Shown here piece by piece: positions 5,043 to 22,353 of a stretch of 64,000 nt of DNA; position 1 is the stretch's first letter, and each line of letters begins with the position of its first letter. The stretch lies in contig JAFZEI010000028.1 of NCBI GenBank assembly GCA_017560765.1, positions 66,690 through 130,689 on the forward strand, written 5' to 3'. A program made the translations under genes and the position numbers. A model generated the notes under the pieces. It did not search any database. It was not told where the DNA came from and saw only the letters and a program-made list of their open reading frames with translations. This DNA is from Clostridia bacterium (lineage in GTDB: Bacteria; Bacillota; Clostridia; UBA1212; UBA1255).

Positions 5043-5981
5043 ATGATATTTTCCTGTTTAATAGGTATTTTCTCATTTATACTAATGATTTTATTTGTTA
5101 TTTTTAATTCAGATTGCATACCTGAAACACGCAATGCTCTCTATACTTTTTTAGATTCTGTTTTTCCTACAATGTTTCCCTTTTATGTATTGTCTTCCAT
5201 TCTTACTGCATGCTCCCCTTTTCAAAAAATGCTCCGCCCGTTAAAACCTATATCTCGCTTTTACAAACTGCCCAATGAATCAATTTCGGCAATCCTCTTA
5301 GGTTTACTGTGCGGTTTTCCTATAGGTGCAAAAGTCACCAGTGATTTATACAGTAAAAATTTAATTACGGAAAAAGAGGGCGCTTTACTTGCTTCCTTCA
5401 CAAATAACGCCGGGCCAATTTATACAATTACAATTATAGGAGGCATATTTCTTCAAAATAAAATGTATGGTTTTCTTATATGGATTTGTATAGCTTTATC
5501 CTCCTTAATTACAGGATTAATACTTTGCAAGCTTTGTCTAAATAAAGAAGAAAAGCCTATTGTAAATCACTATAATACCGAAACAAATGTTGACATAACA
5601 AAAGCTATTATGACAGGACTAAATACTGCACTTTACGTTGGTGCCGTTATAATATTCTTTGCTTCTGTAACATCCCTTTTAAAACAAATACCGTTTTTTT
5701 CTGATTCTGTTTATGTTTCCCTTTATTCCTTTTTGGAATTAACAGGCGGTCTAAAGGCAATGACTGCTCATATAACAAATACATTTCCGCAATTACCATC
5801 ATATCTTTATTGTGCTATTATTTCTGCCACAGCAGCATGGTCAGGAATTTGTATACACTTGCAAGTCTGTGGCATATTAAAAGCTTCAGGTATCAGTTTA
5901 AGATATTATCTTATCGGAAAAATACTTTCTTCATTTATATCATTTTTTACAACGATAATATTGTTTGCTGTAATAATATAA
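5043..5981 (+). CDS. Polytopic membrane protein, YlbJ-like sporulation integral membrane protein (nucleoside-recognition/Gate domain)
   Basis: The 312-aa protein has ~8 predicted TM segments, and motif LGLLCGFPIGAKVTSDLY…FTNNAGPIY resembles the YlbJ family. Confidence 0.45.
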   Translation: MIFSCLIGIFSFILMILFVIFNSDCIPETRNALYTFLDSVFPTMFPFYVLSSILTACSPFQKMLRPLKPISRFYKLPNESISAILLGLLCGFPIGAKVTSDLYSKNLITEKEGALLASFTNNAGPIYTITIIGGIFLQNKMYGFLIWICIALSSLITGLILCKLCLNKEEKPIVNHYNTETNVDITKAIMTGLNTALYVGAVIIFFASVTSLLKQIPFFSDSVYVSLYSFLELTGGLKAMTAHITNTFPQLPSYLYCAIISATAAWSGICIHLQVCGILKASGISLRYYLIGKILSSFISFFTTIILFAVII

Positions 5982-6013
5982 AAAGGACACAACCTTTCGA
6001 TTGTGTCCTTTTG
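5980..6013. terminator. Bidirectional rho-independent terminator between convergent genes
   Basis: Stem aggacacaa(5984-5992), loop cctttcga, stem ttgtgtcct(6001-6009), flanked by an A-run upstream and a T-run downstream. Confidence 0.6.
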
Positions 6014-6033: not shown

Positions 6034-7383
6034 TTATACTGTAAGGAGTTCCCAAATTTCGTTACATTTTTGTTCAAGTGCTGCAAAACCGTCTGAGTAG
6101 CTTGCAGAACCGGAAAGATCGTTTCTTAAAATGTTAATAACTCCTTCATCTATTGCCTCAGCAACCTCAATAGGCATACGGCAGTTAACCTGACCAGGTG
6201 TAGATGCTGTATCTGCTTTGTAAACAAATGCATCCCAGTTCTTTGTGCTCCAATTAGGATCATCAGGATACTTCCAAGCATCAAAGCCTTCTTCATCAAC
6301 AGATTTAAGAAGCGGTACTGAACCACCATTTCCTGCATTGAAGGATTTCTGTCCCTCAGGAGCGAAGAAGAATAATGCCAAAGCAGCAGCTGCTGTTACA
6401 TTCTGTGTTCTACTAAATACACCAACACCTGAAGCACCGCATCCAAAAGAAGGATTCTCAAACAAAGGCATATTTATAAGATCCCATTCAACACCCAAGT
6501 TATCATAGTTTTTACCTGCAGACTGAACTGAAGGATATACACAAGTCTTAAATACAGCTTCTTTACCTGCAAAGCCTTCTGCAGTATCGTTAACACCTGT
6601 AATCTTAGCGTAATCTTTCTTAGCTAAATCAAGTGCTTCTTTTACAGCTCTGAGAATCTTACCTTCTTCATCGATAAATGTAATCTTCTTATCTGTTGTG
6701 CTGCACCATGAATTTCTGTATGTATAAGCCTCAAAGAAAGCTGTATACACAGGTGAATAACCAAGGTTCAAGTCAATCGGATAATAATCATCACCATAAA
6801 GCTGCTCACAAAGAGCTTGGAACTCTGCCCATGTCCACTCCGGCTTAACTGATGCACTTGCACCTGCCTCAGTTACAGCTGTCTTGTTGTAAATCAAAGC
6901 CATGTGGTTATAGTCTCTGGGAACGAAATACAAACGTCCGTTAACAAGACCCAATGCATAAATACCACTGTATACATCGCTCAAATCGATATCGAACTTT
7001 TCAACAAAACCGTCAAGAGGAAGCAATGCTTTATCTGTAACTGCATATTTGTATGTATACAACTCTGCAAAATAGAATACATCACCGATATCAGCTGAAG
7101 CAATTCTTGTATCAGATGTAGCAGTGTAATCACGCTCAACCTTTACATCTTTATACTTCTTCTCAAAAGCAGAAATAAATCTCTCTGCTGCCTCCTTAGA
7201 AGCTGAGCTTGTAGCTGCAGGCTCGTATGTGAAAGTGATTTCACCCTCAGCAACACCACTCTTCTCGGCTTCTTCGAGTTGTTCCTGTGATACCATTTGC
7301 GGTTTGCCGCAAGCAACGATAGAAAATGTCATTACAAGAGCAAGCAGAATAACTGCTGCACTTTTGATATACTTTTTCATCAA
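6034..7383 (-). CDS. ABC transporter substrate-binding lipoprotein (family-1 extracellular solute-binding protein, CUT1-type)
   Basis: The 449-aa protein has a lipobox (LVMTFSIVACGKPQ) and the overall SBP_bac_1 pattern. It has its own promoter and terminator. Confidence 0.8.
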   Translation of the reverse strand: MMKKYIKSAAVILLALVMTFSIVACGKPQMVSQEQLEEAEKSGVAEGEITFTYEPAATSSASKEAAERFISAFEKKYKDVKVERDYTATSDTRIASADIGDVFYFAELYTYKYAVTDKALLPLDGFVEKFDIDLSDVYSGIYALGLVNGRLYFVPRDYNHMALIYNKTAVTEAGASASVKPEWTWAEFQALCEQLYGDDYYPIDLNLGYSPVYTAFFEAYTYRNSWCSTTDKKITFIDEEGKILRAVKEALDLAKKDYAKITGVNDTAEGFAGKEAVFKTCVYPSVQSAGKNYDNLGVEWDLINMPLFENPSFGCGASGVGVFSRTQNVTAAAALALFFFAPEGQKSFNAGNGGSVPLLKSVDEEGFDAWKYPDDPNWSTKNWDAFVYKADTASTPGQVNCRMPIEVAEAIDEGVINILRNDLSGSASYSDGFAALEQKCNEIWELLTV

Positions 7384-7436
7384 AATAACCTCCTAAAAAA
7401 ATATAATTTTATTTTCTATTGCATTAAAACAACTTT

Positions 7437-7464: not shown

Positions 7465-7552
7465 TACGCGGTTTGGCAAAAAACACCTAAAAAACCACAA
7501 CTTAACAAAATATTAAAATCGCGTTAAATTTTATATGCATTTTTGATACTTA

Positions 7553-9088
7553 TTACCAATTTGCATTTGCCGCATCTTGAATCGTCTGTAACAATTCATC
7601 AATGTGTGTCATTGTACTGTCTTGAGTATAAGCATCAAATACATCAGCTATTGCATCTTTAACCTCTAAAGACGCATTCCATGACATGAAAGAAGTTAAA
7701 ACTGCAGGATAATCATTTTCTGAATAAAGTGAAAATACTGACGTATTCTTTCCTGACAATGGATATTCTCTCCAGAACTTCATACTGTTTGCTGATACTA
7801 CTGCCGGAACCTTGTAGCCAACATCTCCGGCATACGCTACTGCAGCCTCTTTTACCATTGCATACAATGCAAGGCTTTTTGAAAGCTTAATTGTATTTGC
7901 TATTTCTTTAGCTTCTTCCTCAAGTTCTTCATCGCTTTTATCAAAATCTGTTGTATAATCAGAAGACCTAACAACTTCACGATTAATAACAGCAAAACCA
8001 AGAGTTTTTACACCGATATTCTTATAAACAGTACCATCTTCTGATGCAAATCCCGGAAAATGAGCAAATTCCCAATCAAAAACAACTGCATCAGGATCAT
8101 CCTCTGTATCAACTGCCAAATAATTTTGCCATTTTACAACATCAGAGTGGTCTGCAACTATAATACCGTATTTTGACAAGTCCTCACCACGAACATCTTT
8201 TGTTTGTTTATTATCAACGTATCCTGTTCTTAAGAAATTGTCAGCAAAATACTTAAGTCCTTCAATTACATTAGGATCAGTAAGATTCAATTCTACTGTT
8301 TTGTCTGCAAAAGACACATCATTATATATACTGCCGCCAAAACTCTGTGCAAATGCACCCCAAATAGAATAGTCATTGTAATTCATAAGGATAGGTGTCT
8401 CTACACCACTTTCTCTAAGTGCACCAGCATAAGAAAGCAAGTCATCCCAAGTCCAAGAGTCTGACGGAACGGGGTTTTCTATTCCGGCTGCTTTTAATAA
8501 ATCCAAATTGAGAATTACAACTTGATTTAAATATTCAACAGGACACATATATAAACGACCATCATACATAGAAGCGTCGTATGCAGCCTGCATATATACC
8601 TTTGAAGGATAGAGCTTGCCAAAATTACTGTCAGTAAAATCGGTCACACCATTTGCTTCATTGCTGATATCAACAATCCAGCCTTTTTCAACATATTCAG
8701 GAAGCTTATCTGAACTGATGAGAACTACATCGCCTATATCTCCGCTCTCAATTCTTGAGTCAAGAGTGTTAAAATAATCCTCATAACCAAGTGTAGCGTC
8801 CAACTGAACATCCACACTGGGATATTGAAGTGCAAAAGACTGTGTGAACATAAACAAATCATTATCATTGTCGTTGTTCTCATCTTCGCCATACGGATCC
8901 TCTGCAGTATATTTTGCATTATATGAGGATATTATAATACTGCCTGCAAGATCCTCCGGAACAGGATTTGCCTTACCTGAGCTGCTGTCATCTTTGTCTT
9001 TGTCCTTACTACCGGAGCAACCGATAAAAGATACTGCCACAACAACAGCTAACATACATATTAAAGCAATACGCAATTTGTTAAACAT
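7553..9088 (-). CDS. ABC transporter substrate-binding lipoprotein (long family-1 SBP with acidic linker)
   Basis: The 511-aa protein has lipobox FIGCSGSKDKDKDD. It is the last gene of the long permease operon, with a 12-nt gap to the upstream permease. Confidence 0.75.
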   Translation of the reverse strand: MFNKLRIALICMLAVVVAVSFIGCSGSKDKDKDDSSSGKANPVPEDLAGSIIISSYNAKYTAEDPYGEDENNDNDNDLFMFTQSFALQYPSVDVQLDATLGYEDYFNTLDSRIESGDIGDVVLISSDKLPEYVEKGWIVDISNEANGVTDFTDSNFGKLYPSKVYMQAAYDASMYDGRLYMCPVEYLNQVVILNLDLLKAAGIENPVPSDSWTWDDLLSYAGALRESGVETPILMNYNDYSIWGAFAQSFGGSIYNDVSFADKTVELNLTDPNVIEGLKYFADNFLRTGYVDNKQTKDVRGEDLSKYGIIVADHSDVVKWQNYLAVDTEDDPDAVVFDWEFAHFPGFASEDGTVYKNIGVKTLGFAVINREVVRSSDYTTDFDKSDEELEEEAKEIANTIKLSKSLALYAMVKEAAVAYAGDVGYKVPAVVSANSMKFWREYPLSGKNTSVFSLYSENDYPAVLTSFMSWNASLEVKDAIADVFDAYTQDSTMTHIDELLQTIQDAANANW

Positions 9089-9100
9089 AAAAAACCTCCG

Positions 9101-10069
9101 TTACTCAATAACACCCAGTCGTTCAATACCTGATGCCAGTTTGTTCTGTCCGGCAATATAAACAATAAGTACAGGTATCATAACAAGCAAACATCCTGCA
9201 AAAAGCATTGGTTCGGTCATAGCCTTGTCAAAATCACTTGCTTCACCGGTGTAACCCATAATTTCCGCATAATATGTCTGAATTTTTTCAAGCTTAGGCT
9301 GAAGTGTCATCATATTTTGCTTAAACATATAGGTAGGAGCCTCATAGTTATCATTCCAGTGCCATACAAATGAGAAAATAAATACAATTGAAATGGCAGA
9401 TTTAACCAAGGGCAACATAATTTGAATAAATACTCTAAAAGGTCCTGCTCCGTCTATACGAGCCGCATCATCCATGGCATCCGGAATTCTCTGGAAGAAG
9501 TACATGTAAATCAATGCAAATAAAGCACCTCTTAAGCCAAGTCCAAATATACACGGTACAAGTATTGGTGCATACGTATTTGTTAAACCAAAAGTAGCCC
9601 ACATACCATAGGAAGACAAAATTGTTGTTTGAGGTGGTATCAACAATACCAAAATCAAGAATATAAACAAAAGATTTCTTCCTCTGAATTTAAATCTTCC
9701 TAATGCATATCCGATTATCGCACAGGAAACAGATTGCAATAACGCACTTCCCAAAGACAATATCAAAGAATTCAAGAATGAACGCGGATAAGAAAGACCT
9801 ATCCAAGCATCTACAAAGTTTTGATACTCAAATGACGTTGGAATCCATTCAACTGTTGGATCCATATAATCCTGATAAGACATCATAGATGTTGTCAAAA
9901 TATATATGAAAGGCAACAAAAACAAATATGCAAGTTCTATTAATACATAATACAGGAAAATACGTCCGATGATAAAGGTAATCTTTTTCTTTGCCTTATA
10001 TCCCAAATTTCTATATCTGTCAACAAGTCCACGTATAAAATCAGAAACTCTACCGAAAACCTTTGTCAC
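9101..10069 (-). CDS. Carbohydrate ABC transporter permease (MalG-like), GTG start overlapping the upstream stop (GTGA)
   Basis: The 6 TM segments include an EAA-type loop (IDGAGPFRVFIQIMLPL). The ATG-start ORF to 10138 overlaps the upstream gene by 73 nt. A GTG at 10069 with AGGAGG 8 nt upstream resolves the overlap. Confidence 0.8.
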   Translation of the reverse strand: MTKVFGRVSDFIRGLVDRYRNLGYKAKKKITFIIGRIFLYYVLIELAYLFLLPFIYILTTSMMSYQDYMDPTVEWIPTSFEYQNFVDAWIGLSYPRSFLNSLILSLGSALLQSVSCAIIGYALGRFKFRGRNLLFIFLILVLLIPPQTTILSSYGMWATFGLTNTYAPILVPCIFGLGLRGALFALIYMYFFQRIPDAMDDAARIDGAGPFRVFIQIMLPLVKSAISIVFIFSFVWHWNDNYEAPTYMFKQNMMTLQPKLEKIQTYYAEIMGYTGEASDFDKAMTEPMLFAGCLLVMIPVLIVYIAGQNKLASGIERLGVIE

Positions 10070-10953
10070 TTTAGCCACCTCCTTGTAAATAAGATGAATA
10101 TGAGAATTGTAACAAGAGCGAGAAGCATATACATCCAACTCAATGCAGATGCCATACCATACTCTGTTCCTTTTTCAGTCATTTCATTCATCATACTCAT
10201 TACCGGGTTATTATACTTTGTAAATGAGTCAACAAGAGCATATATACAATTCAAAATAACAAAAGGTGAAATATAAGGAAGTGTTACATGCCAGAAAGAT
10301 TCCCATGCTGTAGCTCCGTCAATTTCAACTACCTCATAAAGAATATCAGGAACGCTCTGCAAGGCAGCAAGGAATATCAAAATCTCAACACTACTGCTCC
10401 ACATGATATCTCCGATATACTGGGTAATTTTTCCTCCGAATGAAGAGAAAATACCTGAAGAAGAATTTACAAGAGAACCAAATACGCTGATACTTCCTAC
10501 TCCTTCGCCAAAGAGATAGCTCATTATTACTCCCGCAAGAATAACGGGGATAAAGAATATTACTCTAAAATAAACTCTTCCTGCAAACTTTTGTTTAAGA
10601 AGCACTGCAACAAACAATGCAAAGAAAACTATTATCGGAACTTGCCAAAGAGAATCTAAGAAGGAATTCAGCATAACCTCACCGACTTCCGGATCTTGAA
10701 CAATATCCACATAGTTCTGAATACCATTCCACTTACTCTGTCCTTCAAAACCATAAAGGTCTGTAAGCTGAGTAATATAAAAACTGATTCTGATTGAAAG
10801 CACTAACGGAACCATAATAAAGATTATGAAACCGATTACCCATGGTAATGAGAATCCCCATCCCTCAAGAGACTTTCTTCTTTCAAAGGAAATAACACTG
10901 CCTAAAGTACGCTTATGCGCTAATTTCTTTTTTGCTTTTATCTGTTTAGCCAT
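10066..10953 (-). CDS. Sugar ABC transporter permease (MalF-like)
   Basis: The 295-aa protein has 6 TM segments and an ABC-TM1 EAA-like motif (IDGATAWESFWHVTLPY). Confidence 0.85.
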   Translation of the reverse strand: MAKQIKAKKKLAHKRTLGSVISFERRKSLEGWGFSLPWVIGFIIFIMVPLVLSIRISFYITQLTDLYGFEGQSKWNGIQNYVDIVQDPEVGEVMLNSFLDSLWQVPIIVFFALFVAVLLKQKFAGRVYFRVIFFIPVILAGVIMSYLFGEGVGSISVFGSLVNSSSGIFSSFGGKITQYIGDIMWSSSVEILIFLAALQSVPDILYEVVEIDGATAWESFWHVTLPYISPFVILNCIYALVDSFTKYNNPVMSMMNEMTEKGTEYGMASALSWMYMLLALVTILIFILFTRRWLK

Positions 10954-10956
10954 GCA

Positions 10957-13446
10957 TTACTTCCCTCCCTTCTCTGAAATTTTATAGCTTTCTGCATTAA
11001 TTGTAATCTTTTCGCCATTAACATCCGTAACTGTTTGTTCAGCTGCCTCATAGTTTACATAAACTCTTGTACCGTCTGAATACTCTGTACAGAAAATATC
11101 AAGGCCGTCAACTACTCTAAAATGGTCTGAAATATCAAGTTTTGCAAAAGGTTTAACTGCCTCAGCAACAGCCTTATAACGCTCTACAATTTCATTTTTT
11201 AATGTTGAATATTCTGAACGATACAAACCATTGTAATAGGTATATCTCAATTCACTTGTCTTTTCTTCTGTAATCTCATAAGACATGAGAGAACCGTATT
11301 CTATAGAACGAAGAGTAAAGAATGCTTCATCGTCTTGATTGTTTACAGGAGCTGAATAATAGTCAACCAATCCATGATATACAATCTGCATAAAAGGAAT
11401 CTCTTCATCCAAAACAAGGTGAGATGACTTTTCAATAGGCATATCAACGATTATGTCTGCATACGGAATTGCGTATGAGTTTCCGCTATATACTGCAACA
11501 TCATCAAAGTTAGCACCGTATTTCTGAAGCCACTTTACATATAAGCTGATTGTCTGTACTCTAAACAAAGGATTTTCTTCGTTATAATCAGAAAATACAT
11601 TGTCACCCAACTGTTGTAAATCAACATTATTAGCACCAAAATCTTTGAGTCTTTCAATCAAATCATCAATAAGCTCTTGATCGAAATATTTAGGTCCCAT
11701 AACATAGAAGTCAGTTTTTCTGAACACACCTGATGTATCCTTTATATAGTAGTTAAGGTAAAAAGTATTCGCCTGTTTAACAATTGAGTTTCTAAATGTT
11801 GCACCATTAGTAGGGCTACCGTAAACAATTAAAAGGTTGTTATCAAGAGCAAGCGTAATATCTTTTCCTTTTGCCCAGCTGTACAAGTCTTTTAAATCAC
11901 TCTTTCCGCCGTAAGAACCATCAACCTTAAGCTTTGATGTGGCATTCCAGAAGTAACCGCCTTTCTGCCAGCCTAAAAGTGAAAGACGCAAATCAGAAGC
12001 ACCCATTGAATCAAGCTCATTATAAATAGAACGAACGTCCTCAAAATCAGTCATGACCTTAACTTGATCAAGGACACCACCTACTTCATTTTGAGCTCCC
12101 ATAAATAATTTTAAATTAAGTACTGGTGAATCACCTGAGTTTCCTGTAGCAAGTTCTACACCATAGCGTTCCTTCCATTGAGCAAGAAGATTAGAACGAA
12201 CTTCTTTTGCAACATCAACATAAGAATATTCTTCTGTTTCTGATGTTGTAATCTTAGTTCTTTGCTCAACATCACCTAATTGCTTATCCTTTACAACCAT
12301 GTCATACTGTGTACCACCGTTTGAAATCTGAAGTTTATAGAAATCACGGTAATTGTATTGGAAATAAATAGCATAGAAAGGAAGGTTTCTAATGCCGGGA
12401 TTTGAAATTTTAAGCTCAGCATTTGAATCTCCTTCTTTTATGAAAGAAGTCATTATAGAGTTTGCTGCGCTGTTAATATTCTCTCCATCATCATCAATAT
12501 TCTCAACGATACCATATGCGCCAATAGAAAGAAGCAAGTTGTTATAATCCGGTGCATCGCTTACATCGAATGTCAAATCATTACCATAAAGCTTCTTTGA
12601 ATACTCGTTGTAGTTTGTGATTCTTGCTGTGTCAAATTTTGTAAGAGCACCCGTACCATCCGGTGTTACAAAGTAACCCTCTTGACCGCTACGATGAGCA
12701 CCCATATAAGGAAGAACACTTAAAGACACCAAGAGAGGTCTTCTGTCTTGTTGCTCATTTTCAAGACCTTTTCTTTCGATTATACCATTTACAGGAATTC
12801 TGTAAACGAGCTCATCATTTTCGATAGTAATCTCAACAGAAAACTCTAATTCAAGTTCCTTCATCTCATAACGAAGACGAACACCGTTTTCTATGTAATA
12901 GGCAGTTTTAACATGTGCCATTTGATTTACACCAAGTGTGAATCCGCCGTCCATACCTGATTTTGTATAACCTACAAAAACAGGCGAAGTAATAAATTGA
13001 CCTGTTTCTGAATTTTCAGCATACAAATCCAAATCAGAAGTTTCGCCTTCTTCAAGTGTTGTTTCATGAATAGGCTCAGGATATGAGCGGAAAATCTCAC
13101 CCGTAACCAAATCCTCTAATATGAAAAGATTATCTCTGTTTGAGAAGCTTAGTTTCAATTTGTCATTCTCTGCTACAACTGTCATACCTTGATCAGTAAG
13201 CATTACACCGTTTATTCCCTTTGATTTATCAGGCGCAGCAACTTCTCTGATACCCTCTACACCATCTTTAGGGAAATTAACCTCATTTCCGTCGCCTGTG
13301 GCCACTGCAACGATGATAAAAGCAAGAATACAAACAAATACAAGAGCTACGCATCCCTTGATTATTTTTACTCTTTTTTCTCGTCTTGCTACTTGAAACA
13401 AAGGATCATTATTTTGTTTTTCTTCAACATTTTTCTTCTTAAACAA
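10957..13446 (-). CDS. Large membrane-anchored extracytoplasmic protein of unknown function (DUF5696-like by size and context; possible glycoside-hydrolase-like fold)
   Basis: The 829-aa protein has a cytoplasmic N-terminus, one TM helix (CVALVFVCILAFIIVAVA), and a large extracellular body. No recognisable catalytic motif. It is embedded between the permease pairs. Confidence 0.5.
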   Translation of the reverse strand: MFKKKNVEEKQNNDPLFQVARREKRVKIIKGCVALVFVCILAFIIVAVATGDGNEVNFPKDGVEGIREVAAPDKSKGINGVMLTDQGMTVVAENDKLKLSFSNRDNLFILEDLVTGEIFRSYPEPIHETTLEEGETSDLDLYAENSETGQFITSPVFVGYTKSGMDGGFTLGVNQMAHVKTAYYIENGVRLRYEMKELELEFSVEITIENDELVYRIPVNGIIERKGLENEQQDRRPLLVSLSVLPYMGAHRSGQEGYFVTPDGTGALTKFDTARITNYNEYSKKLYGNDLTFDVSDAPDYNNLLLSIGAYGIVENIDDDGENINSAANSIMTSFIKEGDSNAELKISNPGIRNLPFYAIYFQYNYRDFYKLQISNGGTQYDMVVKDKQLGDVEQRTKITTSETEEYSYVDVAKEVRSNLLAQWKERYGVELATGNSGDSPVLNLKLFMGAQNEVGGVLDQVKVMTDFEDVRSIYNELDSMGASDLRLSLLGWQKGGYFWNATSKLKVDGSYGGKSDLKDLYSWAKGKDITLALDNNLLIVYGSPTNGATFRNSIVKQANTFYLNYYIKDTSGVFRKTDFYVMGPKYFDQELIDDLIERLKDFGANNVDLQQLGDNVFSDYNEENPLFRVQTISLYVKWLQKYGANFDDVAVYSGNSYAIPYADIIVDMPIEKSSHLVLDEEIPFMQIVYHGLVDYYSAPVNNQDDEAFFTLRSIEYGSLMSYEITEEKTSELRYTYYNGLYRSEYSTLKNEIVERYKAVAEAVKPFAKLDISDHFRVVDGLDIFCTEYSDGTRVYVNYEAAEQTVTDVNGEKITINAESYKISEKGGK

Positions 13447-15535
13447 GATAAATCATCTCCTTACCAAATTGAATAATAAAGTCAAACATTTGGGCTGCAA
13501 GACCGTATACTATAAGGAACAGTAACACTACCGCAACTACGCCGACAGCGGTCAGCATAAATACAACAAATGCCTTTACAGGATGGAAACCATGTATACC
13601 TTTTATACAGAAGTACACAAGAGCAATCGTGTAAATCGTAAGTAATGTGCCAAGAATTCCGTAAATACCGGACTCATTTAATGTAAGCAAATGTGTAAGT
13701 GCTGCATACGGTAATGAAAGAAGCATCAAAGGACCATGACAGTATGCACCGCCTATAACAACGTCTCTGAATCTACCTTCACCGTACATAATCGTTGTAA
13801 CACCATAATTTACTATACAAACAACACCCCAAGGTAAAAACGCAAAGAAGAAAGTCAATACCGGTTCTATTGTATCGAGTGATGCTCCACCTCTGTAAAT
13901 AAAGCTTGTAGCGTATGCAGAAATAACAGAAACAATCGCATACAAAATCATTATAGCTATCATATCTAAATATGAACCCTGGTTTTCATATCTGATTTCT
14001 TCAAAGCCGTCTACAGGATGACGCATTATGTTAGTAACGCGACCAAAGAAATGCTTAATTGCAGTAAAGAAATTTTTCCTTTCCACAGGCACTCCGTATT
14101 TCTTTCTTCTGAATTTCTTAATAGTAACAACGGCAACCCAAAGAGCTAACAACACAACAATTGTAATTACTATCCATGAGAAATAATCTCTTAAGAAATC
14201 CGCTCTCATTTCTTCATAAGCTTCTGATGCATATGTTGCATTTTCAGCTTCATAGAAGAAATCGTAAGCTTCACTGTTAAATTCTTCTCTTAATTTAATG
14301 TTACCTATATTAACAAGTGCGAGAGAATAATAATTACTCTTCTCAACAACTTTCTCCCATTCTTTAAGGGATTCCTCGTACTTACCATCGCTGTAATATG
14401 CGTTTGCAACATGTACTAGATTTGCAAATTCTGTAGGTTTAAATACTGTTATATTACCTGTTGTTTTATTAAGTACATAAACTCTTCCATTTCCGTCAGT
14501 TTCTATACTAACCGGATACGAAAGCTGACCGTAACCATTACCCTTTGTGCCAAAAGCAAATAAGTTATTGCCTCTTTCATCATACTCATAAATTCTGCCA
14601 TACTGTCTGTCTACAATAAGCATGTTATTGTATTTATCAACTGTAACATCACAGAATATCTGATTTATTGTTGAAAAGCTTGACATGATACTGTTGTCAC
14701 GGAAATCATACGCTCCATAAAGTACATCCGAACCGCCAATGTTGATTTTACGAACTTGCGGAGGAGTTTCCGTTGTTGTTGTAGCATACATATAACCGTC
14801 TGCACTGGAGTAAATGTTAGTAAATGTATAAGGAAGTGTAACGACTGAACCCTTTCTGTCCTCACGGCTCCAAAGAAGCTTTGCTAATGATTCCCAAAAT
14901 GAGAGGTTAACTTTATTCGTACCATAATAACTTATAAACTCACCATTTGAGCTAAGCTGCATAATACCGTTACTGTCACCTTTGTTAGTTACATACATAA
15001 AACCTCTTGAATCTTTTGTTATCTTCTCCGGCTGATAGGAGAAATCCTTTGAAAGAAGGTCACTTTCAGGTTTTGAGTACGAATAACGAAGGTTTCCGTA
15101 TTTTGTAAATTCAACAATACGACCGTTTCCTGAGTCTGCAACAATAATTGCTCCGTCATCAGGGTCTACATATACACCTGTAGGATCTTTTAAAGCAGAC
15201 AAATCACCATCTACATATGTTCCGTCACTGCTGATTTCGAAAAGGAATTTATAGTCAGCACCATATACAACAATTCTGTTGTTACCTGTGTCTGCAACAT
15301 AAATCTTTCCTTCATCATCAATAAACATATCCTCCGGATTTTTGAGCTTTCCTGTTTCTGTTGAAAGAAAGTCGATAACCGTACTTGTTTCATAAGCTGC
15401 AGGAATAGGTTTTGCGGTCTTCTCTTTTTCCTGAATATAGTAGTTTGCATAAGGTGTTCTTGCACTTGCAGTTATACCTGTTGAAAGTACTAAGGAAGTT
15501 AATATAAGAAGACATATAAATTTTTTAAACTTCAT
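13439..15535 (-). CDS. NHL-repeat beta-propeller fused to a C-terminal Yip1-domain membrane module (YIP1 family protein)
   Basis: Signal peptide, then about five NHL-like blades (IYVADTGNNRIVVY, IIVADSGNGRIVEF, MLIVDRQYGRIYEY, VYVLNKTTGNITVF), a TM segment, then 5 further TMs typical of Yip1. Confidence 0.7.
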   Translation of the reverse strand: MKFKKFICLLILTSLVLSTGITASARTPYANYYIQEKEKTAKPIPAAYETSTVIDFLSTETGKLKNPEDMFIDDEGKIYVADTGNNRIVVYGADYKFLFEISSDGTYVDGDLSALKDPTGVYVDPDDGAIIVADSGNGRIVEFTKYGNLRYSYSKPESDLLSKDFSYQPEKITKDSRGFMYVTNKGDSNGIMQLSSNGEFISYYGTNKVNLSFWESLAKLLWSREDRKGSVVTLPYTFTNIYSSADGYMYATTTTETPPQVRKINIGGSDVLYGAYDFRDNSIMSSFSTINQIFCDVTVDKYNNMLIVDRQYGRIYEYDERGNNLFAFGTKGNGYGQLSYPVSIETDGNGRVYVLNKTTGNITVFKPTEFANLVHVANAYYSDGKYEESLKEWEKVVEKSNYYSLALVNIGNIKLREEFNSEAYDFFYEAENATYASEAYEEMRADFLRDYFSWIVITIVVLLALWVAVVTIKKFRRKKYGVPVERKNFFTAIKHFFGRVTNIMRHPVDGFEEIRYENQGSYLDMIAIMILYAIVSVISAYATSFIYRGGASLDTIEPVLTFFFAFLPWGVVCIVNYGVTTIMYGEGRFRDVVIGGAYCHGPLMLLSLPYAALTHLLTLNESGIYGILGTLLTIYTIALVYFCIKGIHGFHPVKAFVVFMLTAVGVVAVVLLFLIVYGLAAQMFDFIIQFGKEMIYLV

Positions 15536-15551
15536 TGCCCTTAAACCTCCG

Positions 15552-16421
15552 TTATTTAATTCCTGAGTGTGCCATTGTGTCTTGAACTCTGCTCTGGTTA
15601 ATGATGAAGATTATGATACTCGGAAGAGTCATAATTAAACCAGATGCAGCTCCGGCACCTGTTCTGGCAATACCGCCGCCAATAGTTGACATGAAAAATC
15701 CTAATGTTCTTAACTGCTCTTTGTAAATATACGTTGTAGATGTACCTGTCTCGCCCCAAATACCACCAAACGTAAGAATAATAACAGTTGCTTGAGCGTT
15801 TTTAAGAAGTGGGATTGCTATCTTTTGATAAAGTTGCCATTCAGAAGCACCGTCAATCTTACCGGCTTCGAAAATATCATTCGGAACCGTATCAAGGAAC
15901 TGCTTCATAAGGAACAAACACGTTGTATTGGCAAGAGCCGGTATTATATAAACCAAATAGGTATTATCAATTCCAATTGATGTAATAATCAAATATGCCG
16001 GAATACCTGCCGCTGATGCAATAAACATCATTGATGTTGTTACAAGGCTCATCAAACCTTTTTTGCCTGGGAACTTGTGTTTTGACAAAGGATAAGATGT
16101 CATTGTCAAAAGCCATACCAAACAGAAAATATAACATACTGTTATCAAAATTGTATTAAAGAGATACCTTGTAAACGGTACTGCACTATTAGCTGTTATA
16201 GCCGTCAAATCCTTAAAGTTTTGAATCGTCGGATTCTTAACAAAGAATGTAGGCGGATAGAGGAACAACTCCTCCGGTGGCTTAAATGCTGTACACACAA
16301 GGTATATCAACGGAAGCAAAGATACTGCGCCGGCTAAAGTAAGGAATACTAATATGACGACTTTACCGTGATCTTTACGTTTTTTAGCTTTCTTTAAATA
16401 ATCAACGTCTACCTGAAACAT
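15552..16421 (-). CDS. Carbohydrate ABC transporter permease (MalG-like)
   Basis: The 289-aa protein has 6 TM segments and an EAA loop (IDGASEWQLYQKIAIPLL). Confidence 0.85.
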   Translation of the reverse strand: MFQVDVDYLKKAKKRKDHGKVVILVFLTLAGAVSLLPLIYLVCTAFKPPEELFLYPPTFFVKNPTIQNFKDLTAITANSAVPFTRYLFNTILITVCYIFCLVWLLTMTSYPLSKHKFPGKKGLMSLVTTSMMFIASAAGIPAYLIITSIGIDNTYLVYIIPALANTTCLFLMKQFLDTVPNDIFEAGKIDGASEWQLYQKIAIPLLKNAQATVIILTFGGIWGETGTSTTYIYKEQLRTLGFFMSTIGGGIARTGAGAASGLIMTLPSIIIFIINQSRVQDTMAHSGIK

Positions 16422-16425
16422 ATTA

Positions 16426-17403
16426 TCACTCCTTCTCGCCTAAAACTTTAAATGCAACACGACCGATACCGAGAATCATAACAGAAAGAACCACGGCAAT
16501 AGCAGATGCGTAACCTACCTCAAATCGTGTACCTGAATAGTCACTAAGATGCAACATAATTGTAAGAGCAGCGTCCTCAGGGCTCGGGTGTCCGGCAATC
16601 GTTCCGCCTACAGAGAATGAACCTGTAATTGTAATAACAGCGGCAAACAACAATTGCGGCATTGTTTGAGGAACGTCTACATACAAAAGCTTTTGAAATC
16701 TTGACGTAACACCGTCAACCGAAGCTGCATCGTAAAGTTCTCTGTCAACACCACGGAAACCGGCAACGAATGAAAGGAACTGTGTACTCAAACTTGACCA
16801 CAACGCAACAATGATAACGACAGGCATAATATAATTAACATCCTGTAGCCATTGAATAGGTTCATAAATTAAACCTAAATTTAAAAGCAAGGAGTTAAGG
16901 TAACCTGTACTATCGTTTGAAAACATTACCGCCCAAACAACAGCCATGGCAACACCGCTTGTAAGAGCAGGTGCATAGAACGCCAAAACGTAAATAGGTC
17001 TTACCTTATCCGGAACCTGGTTAATAAACCACGCAAAGAAATATGACGCAATATAAGAAACAGGTCCAACAATTACTGCGTATGTCAAAGTATTTGTAAA
17101 TGCCTTTAAGAAAAGAGCATCATCAACAAACAAATAAACATAGTTTTCAAGTCCGTTAAAAACCGGATCTTCGAAAATGTTCCAATATGTAAAACTGAGA
17201 CCTAATGATGCCAACAAAGGTAACAACGAAAAAGTAATAAAGATAATGAAGAATGGAGCTACCATCGCATAAGACATCTTATGTGTCCACATTTCGTGGA
17301 GTGTGTATCCAAGTCTCTTCTCTACATTGAAAAATCTCTTTTTCGGTGCAACGGGCTTATTTGCTTCAGCTTTTTTTAATTTTTTCTCTTCTTTCTTACT
17401 CAC
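16426..17403 (-). CDS. Sugar ABC transporter permease (MalF-like)
   Basis: The 325-aa protein has 6 TM segments and an EAA loop (VDGVTSRFQKLLYVDVP). Confidence 0.85.
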   Translation of the reverse strand: MSKKEEKKLKKAEANKPVAPKKRFFNVEKRLGYTLHEMWTHKMSYAMVAPFFIIFITFSLLPLLASLGLSFTYWNIFEDPVFNGLENYVYLFVDDALFLKAFTNTLTYAVIVGPVSYIASYFFAWFINQVPDKVRPIYVLAFYAPALTSGVAMAVVWAVMFSNDSTGYLNSLLLNLGLIYEPIQWLQDVNYIMPVVIIVALWSSLSTQFLSFVAGFRGVDRELYDAASVDGVTSRFQKLLYVDVPQTMPQLLFAAVITITGSFSVGGTIAGHPSPEDAALTIMLHLSDYSGTRFEVGYASAIAVVLSVMILGIGRVAFKVLGEKE

Positions 17404-17418
17404 AAATTATCCCTCCAA

Positions 17419-20400
17419 TCACTTTGCAGCAGCACGATCAATATAAATCGCACCATCTTTGGGGATGCCAAACTCTGCTTGCTTACGACGCATCTCTTTA
17501 TTGATTTCTTTTACAGCATCTTCAAGAGCAATTCTACCGCTAAGTCCCTGCATAACAGTTTGGTTCAACGCTGTAACCAAATATCTTGATGTATAGTAAT
17601 CACCCATAGTTCCCGGCGTTTCATCCAAATGCTCCCATTGAGCATTAATAACATCAAGCTCCTCCTGTGAATAAGGAAGTGATTGAAGTGCTACCTTGTT
17701 TGCAGGATTCCAACGAGAAGCAACGCCAAATGTAGCCTCTACCTCTCTACCGTATTCTGCCTGAACAGCATTAGAAAGCCACCATTGAATAAACGTCCAT
17801 GACTCAGCATAATGTTGTTTTTCTTCGTTGTCCTGTTTTATGATGATACAACAAGAAGCAACACCACTTATGGATCTGTCAATAAACTCTTCGCCTGTCT
17901 CCTCATCAACATGAGCCTTACCGGGAAGTAATGTCATTGCCCACTTACCATTAAGCTCAGGAGCGGAATAATAAAGTTGTTGATAGAATGTTAAGTCAGC
18001 AATACCTATAGGCATCTCACCTGACTTAAATCTCATGTAGAAGTTTGCCGCATATACGAAATTATACTGGAGATATAAGTTTGAATATTCCATAAAAGCA
18101 TCGTATGCGAGCTCAGTATTCAATGCTGATTGCATTGCATCAGGAGTGTAGAAATCTCCACCATACTGATAAAGCATAGGCGTGTAACCTCCTACTCCAT
18201 AGTTAAAACAGAAGTCATAACCTGAGTTTGTCAAAGTAGGAAGAATATCATATACCTCATCCCAAGTCTCCGGAGGCTCTACTCCTAAAGTATCAAAAAT
18301 ATCAGTTCTGTAGAACAAAGCGTTCCAGTTTTGAGTCTCAGGGAAAGCGTAGTAGTCACCCAAATAGTTAAAAGGAACAAACGCCTCATCATGGTATGAT
18401 TGTATACCATACGGATTATCTGTATTTTTCCAGAGCTCATCAAATGTCATTACATCTATGCCATTATATTCGTCAACGCATACCTCATTAAGAGGGGCAA
18501 GAGCACCTCTGATGGCAAATTCAAAAACAGAACCTTTACCAATTGAAATAGCGAGGTCAGGAGCAGTTCCTGCAACATAACGTGGCATAATCAATCCCTC
18601 AGAAGATCCGGCTACCATGTTGATGTTTACTTTGATACCATACTCTGGTGTAAACTGCTCACTTACCATATTACGCATAATATCTACGTGTTCACGACCT
18701 CTGGCAACATAAACCTCAATCTCCGGCATACCTTCTGTATCGAGACCCTCACGAGCACCGGCGTTCTCATATTTTTCATTGTCAAATGAATTTAAAAATC
18801 TTACAGCACCAACATATAAGCTCTGCCAAGCATTGCTTCTTGCATCAGGATAATCATAATCCTTGGGAGCTGCAACCATGTAGTCAATAGCAATAGGTTG
18901 TTCCTTAATAGAAACCATTGTATTACTCAAACCGGTCTGTGCATTTGTAATATCGTTAAGAGAAATAGCAACTTTTTCTAAATCTTCATCGAAATCCTCA
19001 AACAATTCGCTGGCTACTTTAACAGCAGAAGCATAAGAAGTAACCTTACCGCCATTTAAGTAAATGATATCTTCATAACACTTGTTGAAAACATCAATGT
19101 ATGTCTTAATATCCTCTTGAATTGTAGGGATATAAAGCTGTAAATCATAGTCTCTGTTTTTATCTATTGTATATCCACCTGATGATGTACGCGCCGAAGC
19201 AGTAATTTTAACAATTTTATTTACAAGTGTTGATATTGAGTCCATAGATTCTTCTATTCTCTGGAGAGAATGACGAAGCGGACCAACTTTATTAACTAAA
19301 GAAATTGTATGATCGCCTTCTTCTAAGTAAAAGAGATATGGATTTTGATCTGCATCAAGCAAAGAGACAGCCGTCCAACCATCTGCATAAGGGAAACAAT
19401 ATTCTTCCATTTCTGCAAAAGGAATAGAACCGTCAATCTTTATCTCTTTAAAAGATGAAACGTATGTAAATTGAGATTTATAACGGAATCCCAATTCATA
19501 CCAACCTGTCTCAGGTACATTAAATGTCCATTCTACCTTATCTCCGCCTACAGACCATCTGTCACCACCGAATATATTAAACAGAGTAGCTTTATAAGAC
19601 GGAAGTGTTGCGTTTGAAGTTGTATAATAGTCATTGTCTGTTTCCATTCTGACACTTATACTTGTTGTCCAATCCGGAACCTCCATTTCCTTCTTTACAG
19701 ATGTTCCTGTATAAATGGCAGAATCTGAAAAACCTTTTTGTGTTTTATATTCTGCATAGGAAGGATTTACAACAGGAGCAATGAATTTAATATTGCGTAC
19801 CGCGCCGCTCTCTTTTGAGAACGTAAGAGCGATTTTGTGTGATCCTTTTTGCAAATAGAAACGATACGGATTTCTGTAAAGTCCGTCAGGGTTTGACATA
19901 ACAGTATTTTGCCAATCATAAATTTCTTGTGATTTCGGACGAATTTGATTGCCTACAACATCTTTATTTGAAGCATAATCATAATCATAAAAACCGTACA
20001 TTCTCTTTAATGCCATATTGGAAGCATCTTCAAAAGGAAGTTTACCATCTATAGTGAAATTCACCAGCATATCCGTATCACGGCCTGCAAGCATAAGATA
20101 CTCAATATAAAGTGAATATAAGCCGGCTTCATCAACTGTAATATCAAATTCCAGCTTTGTACCTTCATTGGAAACATAGAGCGCTCCTGCAATGTCTTCT
20201 AAAGAAAGAGACTTTTCGGAATTATCACTTTTATCAGTATACTTTACTCCGTTTTTATACTCTTCAATCTCATTAAGAAGAAAAACTTCTGACTCAGTAA
20301 GTTCCTTGTATTGAGAAAGGAAATCTCTAAGCCTTGAATCGGTAAGGTAGTCTTTAAGACCTTCTGCTGTATAGTCTTTTTCATCTACCCCTGATACACC

Positions 20401-20736
20401 ATATTTTTCCTTTAACGCAGCAATCTTGTTAGCCGTATCTGTATGCGACTTTGCAATAAGAGCCGCTACATCCACACTAATAGGATCTCCGGAATAATAC
20501 TTGTACCCCTTGGACGCATACTTCGTCAGAACCTTGCCGTATTCCAAAAAGCTGTTATCCAAACGTTCTTCATTTGCAACGAACGGATCAAAATCCATCT
20601 CGTCATAGTTCTCATAATTGTACTGAACTGTTTCAGCATCTCTGTTGCCATAAACGACAAAGACAACTGCAGCCACAAGAACAAGTGCGACTATGACAAT
20701 CGTTAAACGAATCATCTTCTTTTTTTTCTTAGTCAT
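17419..20736 (-). CDS. Giant membrane-anchored extracellular protein: N-terminal TM anchor, two internally duplicated beta-sandwich (CBM-like) modules, and a C-terminal family-1 solute-binding-protein domain
   Basis: The 1105-aa protein starts with TM helix LTIVIVALVLVAAVVFVVY. A tandem duplication is visible (GLYSLYIEY…IDGKLPFED…NPYRFYLQKGSHKIAL versus GWYELGFRY…IDGSIPFAE…NPYLFYLEEGDHTISL). The C-terminal ~450 aa resemble an ABC SBP. Confidence 0.7.
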   Translation of the reverse strand: MTKKKKKMIRLTIVIVALVLVAAVVFVVYGNRDAETVQYNYENYDEMDFDPFVANEERLDNSFLEYGKVLTKYASKGYKYYSGDPISVDVAALIAKSHTDTANKIAALKEKYGVSGVDEKDYTAEGLKDYLTDSRLRDFLSQYKELTESEVFLLNEIEEYKNGVKYTDKSDNSEKSLSLEDIAGALYVSNEGTKLEFDITVDEAGLYSLYIEYLMLAGRDTDMLVNFTIDGKLPFEDASNMALKRMYGFYDYDYASNKDVVGNQIRPKSQEIYDWQNTVMSNPDGLYRNPYRFYLQKGSHKIALTFSKESGAVRNIKFIAPVVNPSYAEYKTQKGFSDSAIYTGTSVKKEMEVPDWTTSISVRMETDNDYYTTSNATLPSYKATLFNIFGGDRWSVGGDKVEWTFNVPETGWYELGFRYKSQFTYVSSFKEIKIDGSIPFAEMEEYCFPYADGWTAVSLLDADQNPYLFYLEEGDHTISLVNKVGPLRHSLQRIEESMDSISTLVNKIVKITASARTSSGGYTIDKNRDYDLQLYIPTIQEDIKTYIDVFNKCYEDIIYLNGGKVTSYASAVKVASELFEDFDEDLEKVAISLNDITNAQTGLSNTMVSIKEQPIAIDYMVAAPKDYDYPDARSNAWQSLYVGAVRFLNSFDNEKYENAGAREGLDTEGMPEIEVYVARGREHVDIMRNMVSEQFTPEYGIKVNINMVAGSSEGLIMPRYVAGTAPDLAISIGKGSVFEFAIRGALAPLNEVCVDEYNGIDVMTFDELWKNTDNPYGIQSYHDEAFVPFNYLGDYYAFPETQNWNALFYRTDIFDTLGVEPPETWDEVYDILPTLTNSGYDFCFNYGVGGYTPMLYQYGGDFYTPDAMQSALNTELAYDAFMEYSNLYLQYNFVYAANFYMRFKSGEMPIGIADLTFYQQLYYSAPELNGKWAMTLLPGKAHVDEETGEEFIDRSISGVASCCIIIKQDNEEKQHYAESWTFIQWWLSNAVQAEYGREVEATFGVASRWNPANKVALQSLPYSQEELDVINAQWEHLDETPGTMGDYYTSRYLVTALNQTVMQGLSGRIALEDAVKEINKEMRRKQAEFGIPKDGAIYIDRAAAK

Positions 20737-20818
20737 ACGATCAACCTTCCGTGATATTTTGGTTATTAAAAACGATAATAATTATCACTATGCCTTTTTG
20801 GGCAATCTAAACAAAAGA

Positions 20819-20847
20819 ATTATATATATTTCGTGCAACTGTGTCAA
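20819..20847 (-). promoter_or_regulatory. Consensus sigma-A promoter driving the 8-gene ABC/YIP1 operon
   Basis: On the minus strand: TTGACA(20847-20842), a 17-nt spacer, then TATAAT(20824-20819). An ~85-nt leader ends in RBS GGAAGG 8 nt before the ATG at 20736. Confidence 0.55.
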
Positions 20848-20898
20848 TAACAAAATGCCAAAAATACTTTAGTTATTTTGTGTGCAAATTGTAAATAA

Positions 20899-22353
20899 TT
20901 ATAATTCGAGGACAAGTTCTTTAAATGTATTTCCCCGCTCTTCAAAGTTTCTGAAAAGGTCGAAGCTGGTACTTGCGGGAGAAAGCAGAACGCAATCTCC
21001 TGATTTCGCATTTTCACATGCATATTTTACAGCTTCTTTATAATTATTCGGATGTAATATCTTTAAAATTTTCTCGTCAAACTTATTACAGGCTTTAACT
21101 GCTGCCTCAATTTTTTCTGCCGTAGGTCCAATCAAAATCAAAGCCTTTACTTTTTCACAAATTACAGGTCCAATATCATCATACGGTATATTTTTATCCT
21201 TACCACCTGCAATCATTACCACATTGCCGTCAAAGACTGAAAGTGTTTGTATTGTTCTGTTCGGACTGCTGTCTATTGAACTGTTGTAATATTTTACACC
21301 GTCAAGCTCTCTGACAAGCTCGCATCTATGGGAAACACCTGTAAATTCCGTTGCCACTGCCTCAACATCAGCTTGAGTAATTGTATCGGCACAAGCTGCA
21401 ATAGCCGTCAAGAGATTTTCTCCATTAAAAATCCCGGGCACTTTGAGTTCAGAACGCGCTATACTGTACTTTATTATATTATTTAAGGAAGAAACATATT
21501 TTAAATTTCCTTCATTTAAAAATCCGTAACCCTCTGCTCCTTTTGTGAATTCTGAAATTGCACTTTTATAAGCAGAAAACATACGTACCCTTTTACCCTT
21601 AGATATGCACTCTGCTGCAATACCGGCTGTAATTTCATTCTTATCATTCAGAACAATCACACCGTTTGCGCCTTGATTCTCAAGAATATTTTTCTTTGCC
21701 TCTATGTATTCATTGTAATCTTTATGAACATCAAGATGATTAGGTGTAATATTTGTAATAACAGATACATCGGGACTTTTTTTCATTGTCATAAGCTGAA
21801 AACTCGAAAGCTCCAAAACAGCAACATCCTCTGCTTTTATCTCAGGTAAAATATCTATAAGCGGTCTGCCGATATTTCCTCCAAGCCAAACTTTTGTTTC
21901 TGTACCCTTATAATGAGCAGATAGAAGTTTATATGTGAGCGTCGTTGTGGTTGTTTTGCCGTCACTTCCGGTAATTCCATAAGTTTTACACGGACAAAGC
22001 TCAAAAAAAAGCTCCATTTCAGATGTCAATAACGCTCCTTGCTCTACTGCTTTAACAAGAGAAGGAACATCAGGTCTGATAATAGGAGATTTAAAAATAA
22101 TATCATACTTCTCCGACGGAATATCATTTAAATAATCTTCTCCCGTCACAGCACTTTTTATCATGCCATTATTTTTCAGCATTTCTATATTTGCCAATAC
22201 CTGCGGACTTGCAAACTTGTCGTATGCCGTAATATTACGCGCACCGGATTCATATAAAAAACGAATTAACGGTACATTACTGATACCCAAACCCAATACG
22301 GCAATTTTTGCCGCAGCAATATTTTTTTTAAAACTTTCAAATTCATTTGTCAT
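20899..22353 (-). CDS. murD: UDP-N-acetylmuramoyl-L-alanine--D-glutamate ligase MurD
   Basis: Mur-ligase motifs GITGSDGKTTTTTL and a MurD-like N-terminal Rossmann fold (KIAVLGLGISN). Start set at the ATG (MTNEFESF) with GGAGG 9 nt upstream. The longer ORF to 22404 lacks an RBS. Confidence 0.9.
   Translation of the reverse strand: MTNEFESFKKNIAAAKIAVLGLGISNVPLIRFLYESGARNITAYDKFASPQVLANIEMLKNNGMIKSAVTGEDYLNDIPSEKYDIIFKSPIIRPDVPSLVKAVEQGALLTSEMELFFELCPCKTYGITGSDGKTTTTTLTYKLLSAHYKGTETKVWLGGNIGRPLIDILPEIKAEDVAVLELSSFQLMTMKKSPDVSVITNITPNHLDVHKDYNEYIEAKKNILENQGANGVIVLNDKNEITAGIAAECISKGKRVRMFSAYKSAISEFTKGAEGYGFLNEGNLKYVSSLNNIIKYSIARSELKVPGIFNGENLLTAIAACADTITQADVEAVATEFTGVSHRCELVRELDGVKYYNSSIDSSPNRTIQTLSVFDGNVVMIAGGKDKNIPYDDIGPVICEKVKALILIGPTAEKIEAAVKACNKFDEKILKILHPNNYKEAVKYACENAKSGDCVLLSPASTSFDLFRNFEERGNTFKELVLEL

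Follow-up and report, generated by a model that had tools for sequence, protein, structure and literature searches.

ATP-binding cassette (ABC) sugar importers of Gram-positive bacteria usually consist of a small lipoprotein receptor and its permeases, and the capture of polymers is credited to separate enzymes that bear carbohydrate-binding modules (CBMs). Glycan capture at the surface is known from the SusD/E/F-like surface glycan-binding proteins (SGBPs) of the Bacteroidota, while the polysaccharide-utilisation loci (PULs) of Gram-positive bacteria combine cell-attached, CBM-bearing enzymes with ABC importers. The described substrate-binding proteins (SBPs) of CUT1-type importers are lipoproteins or periplasmic proteins of about 400–450 residues, without appended modules. 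The protein considered here is built differently. It is encoded in a stretch of 64,000 nucleotides from a Clostridia bacterium (assembly GCA_017560765.1, contig JAFZEI010000028.1, positions 66,690 to 130,689), referred to below as the window, and is termed the big SBP. Its C-terminal MalE-like domain is preceded by a pair of CBM6/CBM35-like modules, which go back to an ancient tandem duplication, and its N-terminus carries a putative transmembrane (TM) helix in place of a lipid anchor.

The gene is a single uninterrupted open reading frame on the minus strand (17419-20736), which translates into 1105 residues; public assemblies hold a protein of the same length with 99% identity to it. Domain boundaries were refined from AlphaFold2 (AF2) models (pLDDT 87-88, pTM 0.78-0.80), the full-length model having a pLDDT of 88.1. 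The organization of the protein is as follows, with residue numbers counted from the start methionine.

17419..20736, minus strand: whole reading frame, TM-anchored multidomain ABC substrate-binding protein (translation, starts of homologues)
20635..20724, minus strand: N-terminal hydrophobic helix after a lysine-rich stretch, residues 5-34 (hydropathy; AF2 helix 3-30)
20257..20574, minus strand: N-terminal helical region, residues 55-160 (AF2 helices 66-76, 90-112 and 133-149)
19780..20247, minus strand: module 1, CBM6/35-like beta-jelly-roll, residues 164-319 (hhalign to module 2, AF2 strands, column counts)
19912..19971, minus strand: conserved inserted loop in module 1, residues 256-275 (opposite a gap of module 2 in hhalign)
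19285..19698, minus strand: module 2, CBM35-like, main body, residues 347-484
18904..19284, minus strand: four-helix bundle inside module 2, residues 485-611 (AF2 helices 485-512, 539-560, 567-584 and 593-611)
18865..18903, minus strand: final beta-strand of module 2, EQPIAIDYMVAAP, residues 612-624 (AF2 strand 615-623, spliced profile)
17467..18774, minus strand: MalE-like domain (SBP_bac_1/8, CUT1-type), about residues 655-1090 (family profile, Foldseek)

The earlier note on this DNA had proposed that two segments of the protein are copies of one domain. The six motifs that it quoted in support lie where it had placed them (residues 205/411, 229/434 and 289/465), and three methods bear the duplication out, the self-similarity of the protein being far beyond chance. 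Blastp aligns residues 151-345 with residues 346-540 at E=2e-6, with 26% identity over 127 columns. The Smith-Waterman score of the two segments is 80, compared with a mean of 30.7, a standard deviation of 5.3 and a maximum of 57 for shuffled sequences (z=9.3), and the observed score was attained by none of 1000 shuffles. In hhalign, with segment profiles built from 57 homologues (the same 57 were used for the residue conservation counts below), the segments match with a probability of 99.7% and E=4.8e-27 over 96 columns. A window-by-window scan of the whole protein revealed no further internal repeat. The pairwise identity is only 26% and the blastp alignment includes a gap of 30 residues, which could speak for similarity by chance or composition, without any true duplicated domain. 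That reading is refuted by the shuffles and by the profile-profile E-value, and it is at odds with the AF2 models, in which both segments are beta-jelly-rolls; the probability left to it is practically negligible.

The duplication is confirmed for this protein, which shares it with a whole family of more than 1300 clusters. In an exhaustive profile search, at least 1310 clusters (at 50% identity) match the tandem-module profile at E≤1e-30. Among the matches listed, the tandem begins at about residue 70-120 in nearly all representatives, and about three-quarters of these representatives are of approximately 935-1050 residues (most of about 950-1000), the shorter ones presumably being fragments. 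Since the tandem is present in so many clusters and at a similar position in nearly all that are listed, the duplication and its fusion to the SBP domain are ancient and family-wide. The family is found in gut and rumen Clostridia, Paenibacillaceae, Caldicellulosiruptoraceae and Spirochaetia, and its public annotation is ‘extracellular solute-binding protein’ only. Among genomes, the closest matches (78-81% identity) come from Oscillospiraceae, ‘Candidatus Egerieisoma’ and metagenome-assembled genomes (MAGs) of unclassified Clostridia, from animal guts. The helical region of residues 55-160 is largely specific to the close relatives in gut Clostridia; distant homologues are about 100-130 residues shorter.

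The predicted fold of the modules is the galactose-binding-domain-like beta-jelly-roll that is characteristic of CBM35 and CBM6. A family profile of residues 165-545 has its best match in the PDB with the CBM35 of a cycloisomaltooligosaccharide glucanotransferase (CITase; 5x7g, E=5.5e-11); the CITase CBM35 structures 3wnk, 3wnl and 3wnp are matched at about 1e-6, and other CBM35 and CBM6 modules more weakly. The Pfam CBM_35 model is matched at E<0.01 by 16 of 28 family members, the best at 1.8e-10, and Golvesin_C, a related beta-sandwich, by 21 of the 28. Module 1 is connected to CBM35 solely through module 2. Foldseek matches to BcsB and to domain III of Cry toxins were taken as generic beta-sandwich similarity.

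The earlier note was right in reading the modules as CBM-like beta-sandwiches, of the CBM6/CBM35 type as it proves. Its layout was incomplete: it left out the helical N-terminal region of about 100 residues and a helical bundle of about 125 residues in module 2. The four-helix bundle is best read, from alignments and the predicted structure, as an insertion before the last strand of module 2. The strand that follows the helices has the family-wide pattern Q-P-L-x-x-D-Y-(I/M)-V, with D618 invariant, and matches the C-terminal N-x-D strand of CBM35; it is equivalent to the CBM35 strand ‘INLDSLTL’. When the four helices were removed from 29 family sequences and the PDB was searched with the resulting profile, the alignment to the CITase CBM35 crossed the splice and continued into the last strand, pairing “kvikeqplelDyivl” with “DAGNVGAINLDSLTL”, and the spliced profile covered the CBM6 structure 2cdo nearly end to end. 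Splicing left the E-value to the CITase CBM35 no better (2.7e-10, compared with 5.5e-11 unspliced), so that the case for the insertion topology is made by the extent of the alignment, by the motifs and by the strand in the AF2 model. When ten module-2 sequences were spliced and scanned singly, they matched almost nothing in Pfam. The bundle itself resembles antiparallel coiled coils, its profile matching designed ones. Between its first and second helices lies a nearly invariant loop, D525-x-N-R528-D-(Y/W)-D-L, which appears in distant homologues as ‘P-D-x-(Y/F)-R-D-Y’.

The two most conserved binding signatures of CBM6 and CBM35 modules are a sugar-stacking tryptophan in region A and, in region C, an invariant asparagine (PMC9843283). 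In PsCITase, the canonical site uses W507 as its stacking platform, and the W507A mutation lowers activity (PMC5408701). W454 of module 2 aligns with W507 of PsCITase, and every one of the 57 homologues has an aromatic residue there, tryptophan in 52, phenylalanine in 4 and tyrosine in 1. In module 1 the equivalent tryptophan is W275, kept in 47 of the 57. Module 2 also conserves N387 and W394, and it opens with an ‘ExE’ motif (E350/E352; K-E-M-E-V in this protein, x-I-(Q/E)-x-E-(D/N) in distant members). None of the 57 homologues departs from E352 and D618, which align with the first and last strands of CBM35, and we infer that they act as the metal ligands of a structural calcium site. Module 1 features an insertion of about 20-30 residues with the motif D-x-x-G-N-(E/Q)-I-R-P-x-Q-x-E-x-x-x-W, which ends in W275 and sits at the position that carries W454 in module 2. 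Its residues are well conserved among the 57 homologues (D259 in 47, G262 in 53, N263 in 45, R266 in 37, Q269 in 41, E271 in 48 and W275 in 47). Of the two binding signatures, the family has one, the region A tryptophan, and lacks the other, the region C asparagine (see below); carbohydrate binding by the modules is plausible.

The earlier note had taken some 450 residues for an SBP-like domain with adjacent permeases, and the family profile, Foldseek and the neighbouring genes support a true MalE-like SBP, in the last 450 residues or so, beside two permeases. The family profile matches PDB entries of sugar SBPs (Lin1841, 5ysb, E=2e-34; 5ci5, E=5e-27), and a Foldseek search with the full-length AF2 model finds 5ci5 at E=3e-19 and many sugar SBPs at target-normalised TM-scores of 0.7-0.83; the predicted fold is the bilobed one of class II periplasmic binding proteins. 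Most homologues carry precomputed PF01547 or PF13416 assignments. The domain shows no significant similarity to either of the other two SBPs of the same gene cluster (449 and 511 residues; see below), and the idea that it is a recent copy of one of them was rejected.

The proposal that the protein is held by a TM helix and not by a lipobox also stands, as judged by heuristics: the N-terminus MTKKKKKMIR is followed by about 20-22 hydrophobic residues, and it has no cysteine and no lipobox. The helix is probably an uncleaved signal-anchor. All close relatives share this lysine-rich, TM-type anchor, and the other SBPs of the same operon carry lipoboxes (FIGC and IVAC). Tethering by a TM helix is a variant and does not disqualify the protein as an SBP. 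By the same heuristics, several distant homologues (e.g. P0059, P0075 and P0057) have cleavable-looking signal peptides (A-x-A) without a long TM segment, and no convincing lipobox was seen among the distant homologues inspected.

The big SBP is the first of nine genes that likely form an operon; the others are given here in their order of transcription.

16426..17403, minus strand: permease A1, MalF-type (BPD_transp_1; 15 nt 3' of the big SBP)
15552..16421, minus strand: permease A2, MalG-type (BPD_transp_1; conserved position)
13439..15535, minus strand: protein of 698 residues with a signal peptide, an NHL beta-propeller, TPR and a Yip1 multi-TM part
10957..13446, minus strand: DUF5696 protein, 829 residues, TM at residues 24-56 (PF18952, E=5.8e-130)
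9101..10953, minus strand: permease pair B (B1, 10066-10953; B2, 9101 to about 10069)
7553..9088, minus strand: lipoprotein SBP of 511 residues, lipobox FIGC, cognate of permease pair B
6034..7383, minus strand: second lipoprotein SBP, 449 residues, lipobox IVAC, last gene before the terminator

The open reading frame called mechanically for permease B2 (9101-10138, minus strand; 345 residues from a TTG start) has a 73-nt overlap with B1. On near-identical contigs the called gene has 322 residues (20668-21636 in locus L004), which probably puts the true start some 69 nt farther downstream.

A MalF/MalG-type permease pair adjoins the big SBP in all loci. The earlier note had pointed to these permeases; the cassette continues beyond them, with a second ABC importer, the NHL-TPR-Yip1 protein and the DUF5696 protein. 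All partners in the cassette are predicted to be membrane-anchored and outward-facing. The gene order from the big SBP to permease pair B is identical in every locus with enough flanking sequence, 42 loci in all, the distant taxa included, and the full order down to the 511-residue SBP is found in every such locus of gut and rumen Clostridia (37 genome loci, and metagenome contigs). The scan for genome loci used nine closer sequences and is biased towards gut Clostridia; the distant taxa were found separately. Paenibacillus cellulosilyticus, a Spirochaetia MAG and an isolate of the Caldicellulosiruptoraceae share the order from the big SBP via NHL, Yip1 and DUF5696 as far as permease pair B. 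The P. cellulosilyticus locus is QGTQ01000002.1:451133-474069, and Cohnella species are other cultured carriers. In the Spirochaetia locus, pair B has a small SBP gene after it; in the P. cellulosilyticus and Caldicellulosiruptoraceae loci such a gene lies upstream of the big SBP instead. NHL-TPR and Yip1 are fused in the lineage of the window and are two adjacent genes in Paenibacillus, Spirochaetia and Caldicellulosiruptoraceae; the gene fusion suggests that the two parts act together. The coordinates of the separate NHL and Yip1 genes are 14822-16892 in L001, 9237-11302 in L002 and 14727-16820 in L003.

There are CUT1 systems that share an ATPase of the MsmX/MsmK type, encoded elsewhere. 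No ABC ATPase was found in the cassette loci or in the 64-kb window, an absence that is to be expected if this system does the same. Compared with a PUL, the transporter is present twice and the sole candidate for a hydrolase is the DUF5696 protein. A profile of 17 DUF5696 sequences matches only GH129 structures in the PDB (8rzg, 5opq and 5wzn, E=7e-5 to 4e-4); in 8rzg the match consists of three segments, each non-significant, which are collinear along both proteins. A profile of four sequences gives E=0.004, and a single sequence has no match in the PDB. On this similarity, the DUF5696 protein may be a divergent surface glycoside hydrolase. Within the library searched, there was no relevant paper on DUF5696, the cassette, CBM35-bearing SBPs, or the combination of Yip1, NHL and ABC genes.

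The reading that we favour, with guarded confidence, is that the big SBP is a capture-and-deliver receptor in one polypeptide, in which the CBM35-like pair holds a glycan, DUF5696 trims it, and the SBP domain loads permease pair A. The protein would be the substrate-binding subunit of a CUT1-type, MalEFG-like ABC sugar importer, and its signal-anchor helix, instead of a lipid anchor, would keep it on the outer side of the membrane. The ectodomain between the anchor and the SBP domain would consist of the two jelly-rolls of the CBM6/CBM35 superfamily. Module 2 would have kept its calcium-site residues (E352 and D618) and the sugar-stacking W454 and acquired a four-helix bundle before its last strand; module 1 would have lost its calcium site and gained the conserved polar and aromatic loop, GN(E/Q)IRPxQxE...W, where CBM35 modules bind sugar. 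The modules would bind a glycan chain (a polymer or a long oligosaccharide) and so concentrate it at the cell surface, where the membrane-anchored, distantly GH129-like DUF5696 protein would trim it. A trimmed oligosaccharide would then pass to the C-terminal SBP domain and on to permease pair A, a second product would be bound by the lipoprotein SBP and enter by permease pair B, and an MsmX/MsmK-type shared ATPase encoded elsewhere would hydrolyse the ATP. The binding of glycan, the hand-off and the activity of DUF5696 are the parts of this mechanism that we infer. As to the substrate, candidates taken from the best matches (alpha-1,6-glucan from the CBM35, cyclic or beta-1,2 glucan from the SBPs) and from neighbours in other genomes (GH5, GH20 and DUF5060) were rejected as too weak and inconsistent.

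Several observations weigh against this scheme. The window protein taken alone matches no Pfam SBP model at E≤0.1 and lies below the gathering scores of SBP_bac_1/8; in single-sequence scans of Pfam and NCBIfam it gives only sub-threshold matches, to CBM_35 (19.6-24.2 bits, with a cutoff of 28), Golvesin_C and TIGR03850 (26.8 bits, with a cutoff of 299). The link of DUF5696 to GH129, at E of about 1e-4, is weak. In the window the cassette is flanked neither by a regulator nor by a glycoside hydrolase that belongs to a defined family, and it contains no regulator itself (loci L001 and L003 have LacI or GntR genes upstream). The literature search found no experimental or expression work on any family member. 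The pTM of 0.78 over 1105 residues suggests a compact, rigid body, while polymer capture usually involves CBMs on flexible linkers. In module 1, which is degenerate, the calcium-site residues are missing (no ExE, no Asp). The region C asparagine is missing as well: A616, two residues before D618, takes its place, and none of the 57 homologues has Asn there (A in 12, T in 12, D in 11, E in 9, L in 6 and S in 3).

The conserved cassette, with its second importer, NHL-TPR-Yip1 and DUF5696, raises a rival to polymer capture, namely protein docking. The two modules and the helical insertion would then bind no sugar and would form a rigid pedestal or protein interface that fixes the SBP domain in a surface complex with NHL-TPR-Yip1, DUF5696 or both, and glycan would be recognised by these partners and the SBP cleft alone. 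The loss of the region C asparagine throughout the family and of the calcium site in module 1 would fit this reading, as would the confident, compact packing of the domains in the model and the fact that NHL/Yip1 and DUF5696 strictly accompany the big SBP, in the same order, in every locus examined. The distant homologues with cleavable-looking signal peptides and no lipobox would need a partner on a Gram-positive cell, and there are conserved motifs outside the canonical sugar site, such as the D525-x-N-R528-D-Y-D-L loop of the inserted bundle. Non-classical roles have precedents among CBM35 folds, in Ape1 and BT0996-C. However, BT0996-C, which is without both signatures, still binds a polysaccharide, pectin (PMC9843283), so that a missing region C asparagine need not preclude binding. 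The stacking tryptophan is kept in both modules, and the conserved Arg, Gln, Glu and Trp residues of the module 1 loop lie at the canonical site, in a pattern typical of sugar sites. We regard a purely structural role of the modules as a serious but rather unlikely alternative.

The protein could also be a surface polysaccharide sensor and not a transport subunit, in the manner of the CBM-bearing RsgI anti-sigma factors or of SBP-like chemoreceptor domains. RsgI-type biomass sensors combine a TM anchor with extracellular CBM-like modules, as does the big SBP; the window cassette lacks a regulator, and an RsgI gene happens to sit upstream in locus L001. Against this, the cytoplasmic part comprises only about seven residues, without a signalling domain, and a MalF/MalG-type permease pair of its own always follows directly (at 15 nt in the window), which together make a sensor role unlikely. 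The match of the SBP domain with transport SBPs extends over its whole length, and pair B has a separate SBP, leaving pair A without one unless the big SBP serves it. A sensor is on these grounds quite improbable.

A wider version of the capture-and-deliver reading would see in the nine genes a surface machine that spans phyla, a Gram-positive counterpart of the Sus systems made of different parts, in which the helix-interrupted CBM35 pair both binds the polymer and docks the SBP; this we consider possible, if doubtful.

The signals around the genes fit a single operon. A ribosome-binding site (GGAAGG, 20745-20750) lies 9 nt 5' of the ATG of the big SBP, and the start codon is supported by the homologues, which begin at the same M-x-KKKKK. 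Two further features lie at the ends of the cassette.

20819..20847, minus strand: promoter-like TTGACA-17-TATAAT, matching at 12 of 12 positions (consensus match only; about 80 nt 5' of the ATG)
5981..6012, minus strand: terminator-like hairpin, 14-bp stem and T-rich tail, just after the last SBP gene

The first, a perfect sigma-70 consensus match, is likely the operon promoter, and the hairpin likely marks the operon end. Between them they bracket the cassette as one transcription unit of about 14.9 kb (5981-20847, minus strand). The surroundings in the window are housekeeping genes (murD, thrC, hom and metA). Downstream of metA (1342-3950, minus strand) lie genes for a leucine-rich-repeat lipoprotein of 360 residues and then a TM-anchored protein of 509 residues, which are unrelated to the cassette.

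If the modules bind glycan, the big SBP would be a device that captures and delivers in one polypeptide, the cassette would be a widespread, uncharacterised glycan-foraging system of gut anaerobes, DUF5696 would gain a testable function, and module 2 would be a natural example of a CBM fold that tolerates a large helical insertion. If they do not, the family would still be a clear-cut instance of CBM folds turned into a structural scaffold. A specialist would not be surprised by an SBP with appended CBM-like domains; the conserved cassette is a worthwhile lead for experiments.

Among known systems, the closest to the C-terminal 450 residues or so are the CUT1 SBPs, e.g. the beta-1,2-glucooligosaccharide SBP Lin1841 (5ysb), Tlet_1705 (5ci5) and CbpB of C. 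thermocellum (7x0i), which have the same bilobed, MalE-like fold; here as there, MalF/MalG-type permeases follow in an operon without an ATPase. The big SBP differs in having about 650 extra N-terminal residues and a TM anchor, and its identity to solved SBPs is 12-19%. The comparators of the modules are the CBM35-1 of CITases from Paenibacillus and Bacillus (5x7g and 3wnk) and the CBM35 modules of CsxA (2vzp) and Xyn30D (4qaw). In contrast to these, the modules of the big SBP are joined to a transporter SBP and not to an enzyme, the region C asparagine is missing, module 2 is broken by the helical bundle of 125 residues, and module 1 is degenerate with a conserved loop of 20-30 residues. DUF5696 shares weak profile similarity with GH129, which includes the NagBb alpha-N-acetylgalactosaminidase (5wzn) and the 3,6-anhydro-D-galactosidase ZgGH129 (5opq); it differs in its TM anchor and its length of about 830 residues, and is at most a putative member of GH129. 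The proposed logic of the cassette would, by analogy, be that of SGBP and PUL systems, i.e. surface capture beside a hydrolase and then hand-off to a transporter. Here the capture module and the transporter receptor would be one polypeptide, and no described PUL is known to include DUF5696, NHL-TPR-Yip1 and two ABC permease pairs among its components. The architecture is new relative to known SBPs, being TM-anchored with twin CBM35-like modules of which one is interrupted by helices, while the kind of system to which it belongs is not.

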